Both the position numbers and the translations under genes were made by a program. The notes under the pieces were generated by a model. It saw only the letters and a list, made by a program, of their open reading frames with translations, was not told where the DNA came from and did no database searches. From Enterobacteria phage GiZh: 64,000 bases of DNA. Of this stretch, positions 55,345 through 56,175 are shown in pieces. The first letter of the stretch is position 1. Each line of letters begins with the position of its first letter. The stretch is taken from sequence record NC_054903.1, one strand, 5' to 3'.

Positions 55345-55420
55345 TGGTCGAGGCAGTAGGGATCGAACCTACGACCTAGGACTTAGAAGGTCCTTGCTCT
55401 TCCTTCTGAGCTATGCCTCG
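55345..55420 (-). tRNA. tRNA-Arg (anticodon UCU)
   Basis: cloverleaf folded by hand: acceptor CGAGGCA/TGCCTCG, anticodon loop CTTCTAA, T-arm GGTTCGATCC, 3' ACCA. Confidence 0.85.
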
Positions 55421-55424
55421 GATT

Positions 55425-55499
55425 TGGCGGACGTGATAGGATTCGAACCTATAACCAATCGCTTAACAGGCGATCGCTCTGCCATTGAGCTACACATCC
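55425..55499 (-). tRNA. tRNA-Asn (anticodon GUU)
   Basis: acceptor GGATGTG/CACGTCC, anticodon loop CTGTTAA, T-arm GGTTCGAATCC, 3' GCCA. Confidence 0.85.
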
Positions 55500-55503
55500 A
55501 AAT

Positions 55504-55590
55504 TGGTGGGGAGTGATGGAGTCGAACCACCCGAGTCGCAATGACAATGGATTTACAGTCCACACCGCTACCTCTACGGGATAACTCCCC
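55504..55590 (-). tRNA. tRNA-Tyr (anticodon GUA)
   Basis: acceptor GGGGAGT/ACTCCCC, anticodon loop CTGTAAA, long variable arm, T-arm GGTTCGACTCC, 3' ACCA. Confidence 0.85.
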
Positions 55591-55602
55591 TAATTCATAA
55601 TT

Positions 55603-55677
55603 TGGTGGCCCTGGGTGGAATTGAACCACCATCTGGCGATTATGAGTCGCTTGCTTGAACCTTCCAGCTACAGGGCC
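55603..55677 (-). tRNA. tRNA with anticodon CAU (Ile2 lysidine-type or Met)
   Basis: acceptor GGCCCTG/CAGGGCC, anticodon loop CTCATAA, T-arm GGTTCAATTCC, 3' ACCA. Confidence 0.8.
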
Positions 55678-55678
55678 T

Positions 55679-55754
55679 TGGTGCTGATTGACGGAATCGA
55701 ACCGCCGACCTTCTCATTACAAGTGAGTTGCTCTACCTACTGAGCTAAATCAGC
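55679..55754 (-). tRNA. tRNA-Thr (anticodon UGU)
   Basis: acceptor GCTGATT/AATCAGC, anticodon loop CTTGTAA, T-arm GGTTCGATTCC, 3' ACCA. Confidence 0.85.
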
Positions 55755-55759
55755 AAAAC

Positions 55760-55849
55760 TGGCGGAGGCGATAGGATTTGAACCTATGAGTCGCCGGAGC
55801 GACTGCCGGTTTTCAAGACCGGTGCATTAAACCACTCTGCCACGCCTCC
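55760..55849 (-). tRNA. tRNA-Ser (anticodon UGA)
   Basis: acceptor GGAGGCG/CGCCTCC, anticodon loop CTTGAAA, long variable arm, T-arm GGTTCAAATCC, 3' GCCA. Confidence 0.85.
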
Positions 55850-55851
55850 AG

Positions 55852-55925
55852 TCTCCATACAAGGATTTGAACCTTGGACCTCCTGATCCCAAATCAGGCG
55901 CTCTACCAAACTGAGCTACACGGAG
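55852..55925 (-). tRNA. tRNA-Pro (anticodon UGG)
   Basis: anticodon loop TTTGGGA, T-arm GGTTCAAATCC; CCA not encoded. Confidence 0.8.
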
Positions 55926-55935
55926 TAAATTAAAT

Positions 55936-56009
55936 TGGAGCGGATAATGAGAATCGAACTCACATCATCAGATTGGAAGTCTGAGGTAATGCCATTATAC
56001 GATATCCGC
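55936..56009 (-). tRNA. tRNA-Gly (anticodon UCC)
   Basis: acceptor GCGGATA/TATCCGC, anticodon loop CTTCCAA, T-arm GAGTTCGATTCTC, 3' TCCA. Confidence 0.85.
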
Positions 56010-56013
56010 AAAT

Positions 56014-56101
56014 TTGGTGCGAGAAGTGGGACTCGAACCCACAAGGAAATCATTCCGCAGCATTTTAAGTGCTGTACCTTTACCAATTTGACCATTCTCG
56101 C
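56014..56101 (-). tRNA. tRNA-Leu (anticodon UAA)
   Basis: acceptor GCGAGAA/TTCTCGC, anticodon loop CTTAAAA, long variable arm, T-arm GGTTCGAGTCC, 3' ACCA. Confidence 0.85.
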
Positions 56102-56102
56102 G

Positions 56103-56175
56103 CTGGGAATAAAGGACTCGAACCTTTGCATCCTGGAATCAAAATCCAGTGCCTTACCAACTTGGCTAATTCCCA
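56103..56175 (-). tRNA. tRNA-Gln (anticodon UUG)
   Basis: acceptor TGGGAAT/ATTCCCA, anticodon loop TTTTGAT, T-arm GGTTCGAGTCC; CCA not encoded. Confidence 0.85.

Follow-up and report, generated by a model that had tools for sequence, protein, structure and literature searches.

A contiguous array of ten tRNA genes

Enterobacteria phage GiZh (NC_054903.1) carries a cluster of transfer RNA (tRNA) genes that includes genes for tRNA-Tyr and tRNA-Asn. We analysed this cluster within a 64-kb stretch of the phage genome, referred to here as the window, to which all coordinates refer. The whole window was searched for tRNA genes with ARAGORN and with the Rfam family RF00005 (gathering score 29 bits). 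ARAGORN calls exactly ten tRNA genes, which are contiguous at positions 55345-56175 and all lie on the minus strand. Read 5' to 3' on that strand they are Gln (anticodon UUG), Leu (UAA), Gly (UCC), Pro (UGG), Ser (UGA), Thr (UGU), a tRNA with the anticodon CAU, Tyr (GUA), Asn (GUU) and Arg (UCU). RF00005 matches all ten above 29 bits, nine of them at 57-74 bits (E-values 1e-9 to 2e-14), with tRNA-Tyr borderline at 30.2 bits. The ten-tRNA array is confirmed and is far beyond chance: both programs detect all ten genes, and the anticodons and coordinates from ARAGORN are those of an earlier note on this DNA, Tyr and Asn included.

The array begins with tRNA-Gln (56102-56175; 67.4 bits) and the class II tRNA-Leu (56015-56101; 56.9 bits), the latter identical to its counterpart in phage T4 at 86 of 87 positions. 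These are followed by tRNA-Gly (55936-56009; 63.3 bits; 73/74 identical to T4), tRNA-Pro (55851-55925; 66.8 bits; identical to T4), the class II tRNA-Ser (55760-55849; 62.6 bits; identical to T4 except for its encoded CCA) and tRNA-Thr (55679-55754; 72.9 bits; 73/76 identical to T4 and fully identical to phage RB14). The last four genes are the CAU tRNA (55603-55677; 59.9 bits), the class II tRNA-Tyr (55504-55590), tRNA-Asn (55425-55499; 74.1 bits, the top score of the ten), which has G73 and an encoded CCA, and tRNA-Arg (55345-55420; 68.1 bits). The GUU anticodon and G73 of tRNA-Asn belong to the identity set of AsnRS, and E. coli asnT likewise has G73. The CAU and Arg genes are of the T2/RB14 type. 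The CCA end is absent from the Gln and Pro genes and encoded in the other eight, including Ser and CAU, both of which lack it in T4.

Two of the genes show peculiarities in the anticodon arm. Eight nucleotides, all of them within this arm, separate the tRNA-Gln of the window and RB14 from the allele of T4, T2 and T6 (CUGGA-UUUUGAU-UCCAG in the window versus UAGCA-CUUUGAC-UGCUA); every change in the stem is compensated, and the loop in the window is that of E. coli glnU. The uppermost position of the anticodon stem in tRNA-Thr is an A27·A43 mismatch, shared with RB14; T4 has C27-G43 here and E. coli thrU has A27-U43.

Flanking elements of the operon

Adjoining tRNA-Gln upstream, on the same strand, is a site resembling a middle promoter (56245-56270), which reads as a MotA box (aTGCTTtA), a 12-nt spacer and TATTAT. 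The MotA box has a known consensus in the middle promoters of T4. This stretch is invariant in the alignment of the window with T4 and RB14. The promoter assignment is based on the MotA-box reading and on the T4 literature, according to which a middle promoter immediately upstream drives most transcription of the tRNA cluster (PMC2330249, citing Broida and Abelson) and transcription ends after the species I RNA gene (PMC2330249). A generic sigma-70 scan near the cluster returned 2 sites where 4.0 were expected, which is no better than chance; these sites are weak and lie further upstream, at 56282-56310 and 56412-56439.

Downstream of tRNA-Arg, again on the minus strand, are homologues of two small stable RNAs of T4. 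The rnaD homologue (T4 species 2 RNA; 55224-55343) matches the annotated T4 rnaD at 104 positions of an alignment spanning 116 query bases and is predicted to be co-transcribed with the tRNAs. The rnaC homologue (T4 species 1 RNA; 55079-55217), which has a tRNA-like 3' T-arm, matches the annotated T4 rnaC at 138 of 139 positions. The rnaD homologue is variable in its middle part (about 55250-55290), whereas rnaC is near-invariant relative to T4. Neither has a family match in the Rfam scan. A strong intrinsic-terminator-like hairpin of 10 pairs, 7 of them G-C, followed by a T run (54996-55028, minus strand), closes the operon downstream. Directly beyond this terminator is a 157-amino-acid open reading frame (ORF; 54481-54954) that is the positional counterpart of the RB14 ORF136-type gene ('similar to RB69ORF148c/149c'). 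The T4 genes annotated at the same position (e.7 and e.8) do not include it, which indicates another variable slot beside the tRNA region.

The CAU tRNA resembles tRNA-Ile2

Published labels for the CAU tRNA conflict, with Ile in RB14 and Met in the T2 and T6 records and in PMC2330249, and the earlier note had left the choice between Ile2 and Met open. For comparison, the E. coli K-12 ileX, metT/metU, tyrU, thrU and asnT loci were used. Among these K-12 tRNAs the CAU tRNA is nearest to ileX (58/75), with 51/71 for metT/metU. Its anticodon arm (GCGACUCAUAAUCGC) is exactly that of ileX, and is thus of the Ile2 type, as are its acceptor pairs C4-G69 and C5-G68, which are shared with ileX, whereas metT has U4-A69 and A5-U68. 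The two acceptor pairs are reportedly the determinants for TilS, as described by Ikeuchi and colleagues in 2005. Because both the acceptor pairs and the anticodon arm are ileX-like, the CAU tRNA is most likely a tRNA-Ile2, predicted to be lysidine-dependent and to read AUA. Identification as an elongator or initiator tRNA-Met, in line with the published Met labels, is disfavoured by the comparison with ileX and metT/metU.

tRNA-Tyr is a genuine gene despite its low score

The tRNA-Tyr scores 30.2 bits against a threshold of 29, its D arm is non-canonical and its free-energy fold is no better than that of shuffled sequence (z = -0.9). A close copy in Enterobacter phage Q7622 escapes ARAGORN, and the T6 homologue has been described as relatively unstable (PMC13096335). 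All of this would fit a decayed, non-functional tRNA-like sequence, an explanation that we nevertheless consider highly improbable. In a fold drawn by hand, the gene forms an acceptor stem of 7 perfect pairs, anticodon and T stems of 5 bp each, and a 3-bp stem within a variable region of 15 nt; the discriminator is A and CCA is encoded. It therefore has the Tyr identity features of a bacterial-type class II tRNA (GUA anticodon, long variable arm and A73), and it is called by ARAGORN in the window. The low Rfam score arises because the generic model mis-registers the acceptor and D arms: in the printed alignment the model starts two bases within the acceptor stem and the D arm is out of register.

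Homologues in T2, T6, the rV5-like phage FV3, a Klebsiella phage and T5 keep the stems through compensatory changes; in the anticodon stem, G30-C42 becomes A-U or U-A, and U29-A43 becomes C-G. The pairs were tabulated by script, since the MAFFT alignment had the T5 acceptor strand displaced by one column. All four main stems (acceptor, anticodon, variable and T) pair, with compensation extending across phage families. The gene is identical to its T2 and RB14 counterparts at 86 of 87 positions and to that of T6 at 85 of 87, and the T6 copy is seen by northern blot and rescues infection (PMC13096335). The ARAGORN call, the stem pairing, the compensatory changes and the published expression and function of the T6 copy together argue strongly against a false positive.

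The D arm of this phage-type tRNA-Tyr is off-register, with the stem CCG/CGG at linear positions 12-14 and 24-26 (CUG/CAG in T5), and 3-4 nt rather than 2 follow the acceptor stem, which depresses the Rfam score. The Q7622 copy, at about 1501-1596 of the piece analysed, is unannotated.

The array is the common form of the T-even tRNA operon

Over 24 kb, the window shares about 97% identity with many Tequatrovirus (T4-like) genomes and, judged by its sequence, is itself Tequatrovirus. The 1.3-kb tRNA region is 98-99% identical to those of vB_EcoM-UFV13, ime09, pSs-1, RB14 and others, and is covered to at least 80% by a single place in 461 records. The Tyr-Asn pair is covered to at least 80% in 394 phage records, and full-length segB in 126.

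In position and order (tRNA.2, ten tRNAs, rnaD, rnaC), and in having no homing endonuclease ORF, the locus fits the segB-free, RB14-like form of the operon. In RB14 (FJ839692, annotated in 2009) the ten tRNAs recur in unchanged order at the corresponding genomic location, flanked by the e.8-side ORFs and tRNA.2; no ORF interrupts them, segB is absent, and rnaD, rnaC and the terminator follow downstream. Seven of its ten tRNAs are identical to those of the window; the other three differ by 1 nt each (C41 versus U41 in Tyr, position 26 in Leu and one base in Arg). Brok-Volchanskaya et al. (2008) sequenced the tRNA regions of T2L, RB1 and RB3 and found segB absent and tRNA-Tyr and tRNA-Asn present (PMC2330249), and by this published description RB1 (AJ884577) and RB3 (AJ884578) are also close known systems. 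The implied novelty of an array with Tyr and Asn is therefore not upheld: the array is an ordinary, already known T-even operon, because it is the common form in T4-like coliphages, with the Tyr and Asn genes in print in 2008 and the same array annotated in RB14 in 2009.

The T2 array reads Gln, Leu, Gly, Pro, Ser, ORF, CAU, Tyr, Asn, Arg. T2/T2L (AP018813; AJ880101) also lacks segB, and its CAU, Tyr, Asn and Arg alleles are 0-1 nt from those of the window; the identities to T2 and RB14 are 75/75 for CAU, 75/75 for Asn and 75/76 for Arg. T2 differs in that an ORF replaces tRNA-Thr, another ORF 3' of Arg replaces most of rnaD and rnaC, and its tRNA-Gln has the T4-type anticodon arm.

T4 (NC_000866) shares with the window the promoter region, the Leu, Gly, Pro and Ser genes (0-1 nt different), Thr (3 nt different), rnaC, rnaD and the flanking genes. 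Its array, however, reads Gln, Leu, Gly, Pro, Ser, Thr, Ile(CAU), segB, Arg, so that there are eight tRNAs rather than ten; the Gln anticodon arm differs, and the T4/T6 alleles of CAU and Arg have 25 and 21 mismatches, respectively, to those of the window. The T4 record thus bears out the statement in the earlier note of eight T4 tRNAs with segB between Ile and Arg, and the record and alignment together confirm that Tyr(GUA) and Asn(GUU) occupy the slot that holds segB in T4. The T6 array reads Gln, Leu, Gly, Thr, CAU, Tyr, segB, Arg. Its tRNA-Tyr has the same variable arm as that of the window but adjoins segB, which drives its tandem amplification, and Asn, Pro and Ser are absent. Because the window has no segB, this amplification is not open to it.

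SegB homing and the probable derived state of T4

The preferred 27-bp recognition site of SegB lies entirely within the tRNA-Asn gene of T2L, and in co-infections of T4 and T2L segB homing excludes a T2L region of about 1250 bp that holds tRNA-Met (CAU), Tyr, Asn and Arg (PMC2330249). In the alignment of the window with T4, identity is near-perfect between about 56284 and about 55665, collapses in the stretch that follows, and is near-perfect once more downstream of about 55340; within the divergent stretch, the CAU and Arg genes of the window are the T2/RB14 alleles and not the T4/T6 alleles. We propose that T4 lacks Tyr and Asn because a segB cassette replaced them, co-converting the flanking CAU and Arg genes. 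Such a cassette would cover the array between a point within the CAU tRNA and the end of tRNA-Arg; in T6 it would have replaced Asn only. The ten-tRNA array is most likely the common and probably ancestral state, and the T4 array derived. This reverses the sense in which Tyr and Asn had been described as extra tRNAs, since it is T4 that probably represents a minority, derived state left by SegB homing into tRNA-Asn.

A possible role in translational supply

Codon and amino-acid usage was compared between 97 long, non-overlapping ORFs of the window and 44 annotated E. coli K-12 genes. Lys is the most over-represented amino acid (1.98x the E. coli sample), Tyr the second (1.73x; 4.58% versus 2.65%) and Asn the fourth (1.39x; 5.57% versus 4.01%). 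The codons UAU and AAU are enriched 2.4x and 2.2x, and enrichment extends to AGA (6.0x), UCA (2.1x), GGA (1.9x), UUA (1.75x) and AUA (1.7x). The suggestion that the tRNAs suit AT-rich codon usage is thus plausible for Tyr and Asn, but it fails to account for Lys, which is over-used with no tRNA.

On these figures, Tyr and Asn might serve purely to supply tRNA for UAU and AAU demand, with no role in counter-defence. Supply is the classical account of the remaining eight T4 tRNAs; the A-ending codons that these read are enriched as well. We nonetheless consider supply as the sole function unlikely. Although Lys is more over-used than either Tyr or Asn, the window encodes no tRNA-Lys, so the gene set does not follow from demand alone. 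In experiments the near-identical tRNA-Tyr of T6 shows a benefit specific to defence (PMC13096335). In addition, this type of tRNA-Tyr is 85-97% alike across unrelated phage families whose other tRNAs, with the exception of the CAU tRNA of FV3, are 62-83% alike, which suggests selection on the tRNA-Tyr molecule itself.

A possible role in counter-defence

When T-even phages infect, the Septu nuclease PtuAB cuts the variable arm of tRNA-Tyr (Chihara et al. 2026, PMC13096335). Over-expression of the T6 tRNA-Tyr, or its SegB-driven amplification, restores infection under Septu, and deletion of the T6 tRNA region raises Septu sensitivity; T4 lacks tRNA-Tyr and is unable to escape Septu, and T2 resists it (PMC13096335). 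The tRNA-Tyr of the window differs by 1 nt from the allele of the Septu-resistant T2. Within the array, near identity to a phage tRNA that rescues infection experimentally is found for Tyr alone, through its T6 counterpart, and the proposal that the tRNAs oppose tRNA-targeting host defences is for Tyr a plausible one. Because Septu also cleaves the T6 tRNA-Tyr (PMC13096335), protection would be a matter of dosage and not of resistance. A second defence is concerned as well: the T5 tRNA-Tyr counters retron-Eco7 (PMC11555353), and its 15-nt variable region is the same as that of the window.

The PARIS nuclease AriB cleaves Lys, Thr and, secondarily, Asn tRNAs, cutting between positions 40 and 41 beside a U36-A-A-U39 motif, and a U39-to-A change abolishes cleavage (PMC12409363). 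Positions 36-41 read UAAUCC in E. coli tRNA-Asn and UAAGCG in that of the window, which lacks the motif in having G39 instead of U39. The T5 tRNA-Asn (UAAGUU), which belongs among the PARIS counter-measures of that phage (PMC12409363), likewise lacks UAAU because it carries G39; the other T5 tRNAs compared read UAAGCA (Thr) and UAAACC (Lys). The tRNA-Thr of the window (UAAUGA) has G40 where the AriB target has C40. The presence of G39 in the tRNA-Asn of the window suggests that this tRNA would resist AriB. Because the phage has no tRNA-Lys(UUU), however, it would probably remain PARIS-sensitive, as T4 is. T5 is unlike the window in supplying this tRNA, and its tRNA-Asn is just 71% identical overall.

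Tyr and Asn could be carried primarily as insurance against tRNA-cleaving nucleases, with codon supply incidental. The effects of tRNA-Tyr dosage in T6, the contrasting Septu phenotypes of T4 and T2, the variable arm shared with the T5 antagonist of retron-Eco7, and the occurrence of G39, a change at the key AriB determinant U39, in tRNA-Asn of the window and in T5 Asn and Thr would all agree with this. Against it, the T6 tRNA-Tyr is itself a Septu substrate, tRNA-Lys(UUU), the primary PARIS target, is absent from the window so that Asn alone would not rescue, and other phages carry a tRNA-Asn with the E. coli-like UAAUCC. We regard a primarily defensive role as possible but somewhat doubtful.

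Possible horizontal spread

The Vequintavirus FV3 has a tRNA-Tyr identical to that of the window at 84 of 87 positions and a CAU tRNA identical at 74 of 75 (positions 1506-1592 and 947-1021 of the FV3 piece), whereas its Pro, Thr, Ser and Arg tRNAs are just 66-83% identical. The T5 tRNA-Tyr is 85% identical to that of the window, and the other tRNAs shared with T5 62-71%. This suggests that the Tyr and CAU genes have spread horizontally between unrelated phage families. In the T5 GenBank record AY587007, the coordinates of the tRNAs that were checked (Phe, Glu, Tyr, Asn, Thr and Lys) and the corresponding ARAGORN calls lie 68 nt apart (Tyr, for example, is annotated at 35193-35280 and predicted at 35261-35348), which is a database annotation glitch.

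A broader reading, which we put forward as speculative and rather unlikely, is that the CAU-Tyr-Asn-Arg cassette together with Thr forms a small anti-defence tRNA island with key members spreading horizontally, and that SegB homing trades protection for selfish spread. In such an island, Tyr may act against Septu and the PtuAB of retron-Eco7, and the G39-hardened Asn and the G40 Thr may act against PARIS AriB; the 97-99% identity of Tyr and CAU in rV5-like phages, and the 85% identity of Tyr in T5, may be marks of its spread. If true, this would account for T4 being more Septu-sensitive than T2.

A model for the operon

The explanation that we favour, and hold to be very probably correct, is that the locus is an ordinary T-even operon of the RB14 type, free of homing endonucleases, whose tRNAs have roles in both supply and counter-defence, and that T4 lost Tyr and Asn to a segB cassette. 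The operon would comprise the MotA-type middle promoter, the ten tRNAs, rnaD, rnaC and the terminator. From what is known of T4, we infer that a polycistronic precursor would be cut by host RNase P and 3' processing enzymes, that CCA would be added to the Gln and Pro tRNAs, and that host synthetases would charge the products. Eight of the tRNAs would decode codons that end in A or are otherwise AT-rich and that are more frequent in the phage than in E. coli, and the Tyr and Asn tRNAs would top up the sole isoacceptor of two amino acids that are over-used in the AT-rich phage proteome. When nucleases of the Septu or retron-Eco7 PtuAB type cleave the host tRNA-Tyr, the phage tRNA-Tyr would refill the pool, and tRNA-Asn and tRNA-Thr may likewise refill against PARIS AriB. 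An origin of Tyr and Asn as recent captures of host genes is unsupported, as Tyr is only 67% identical to E. coli tyrU and Asn only about 63% (47/75) to E. coli asnT.

Several points weigh against this explanation. The ancestral or derived polarity comes from homing logic and record counts and not from a phylogeny. The T4 tRNA region is dispensable for phage development (PMC2330249), and any benefit of the tRNAs would for this reason be conditional. Two further points are those raised above, namely that the most over-used amino acid, Lys, has no tRNA among those of the window and that Septu cleaves the very T6 tRNA-Tyr that protects against it.

As a discovery the array carries little weight, given that hundreds of T-even phages with sequenced genomes have it. 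What is mildly new is that the CAU tRNA is assigned to Ile2, that tRNA-Asn has G39, and that the CAU and Tyr genes are nearly identical to their counterparts in rV5-like phages. For annotation, the CAU tRNA is better labelled Ile2-like than Met, and G39 in tRNA-Asn provides a cheap, testable prediction about evasion of PARIS. At the tRNA locus, it is T4 that is the atypical member of its genus.

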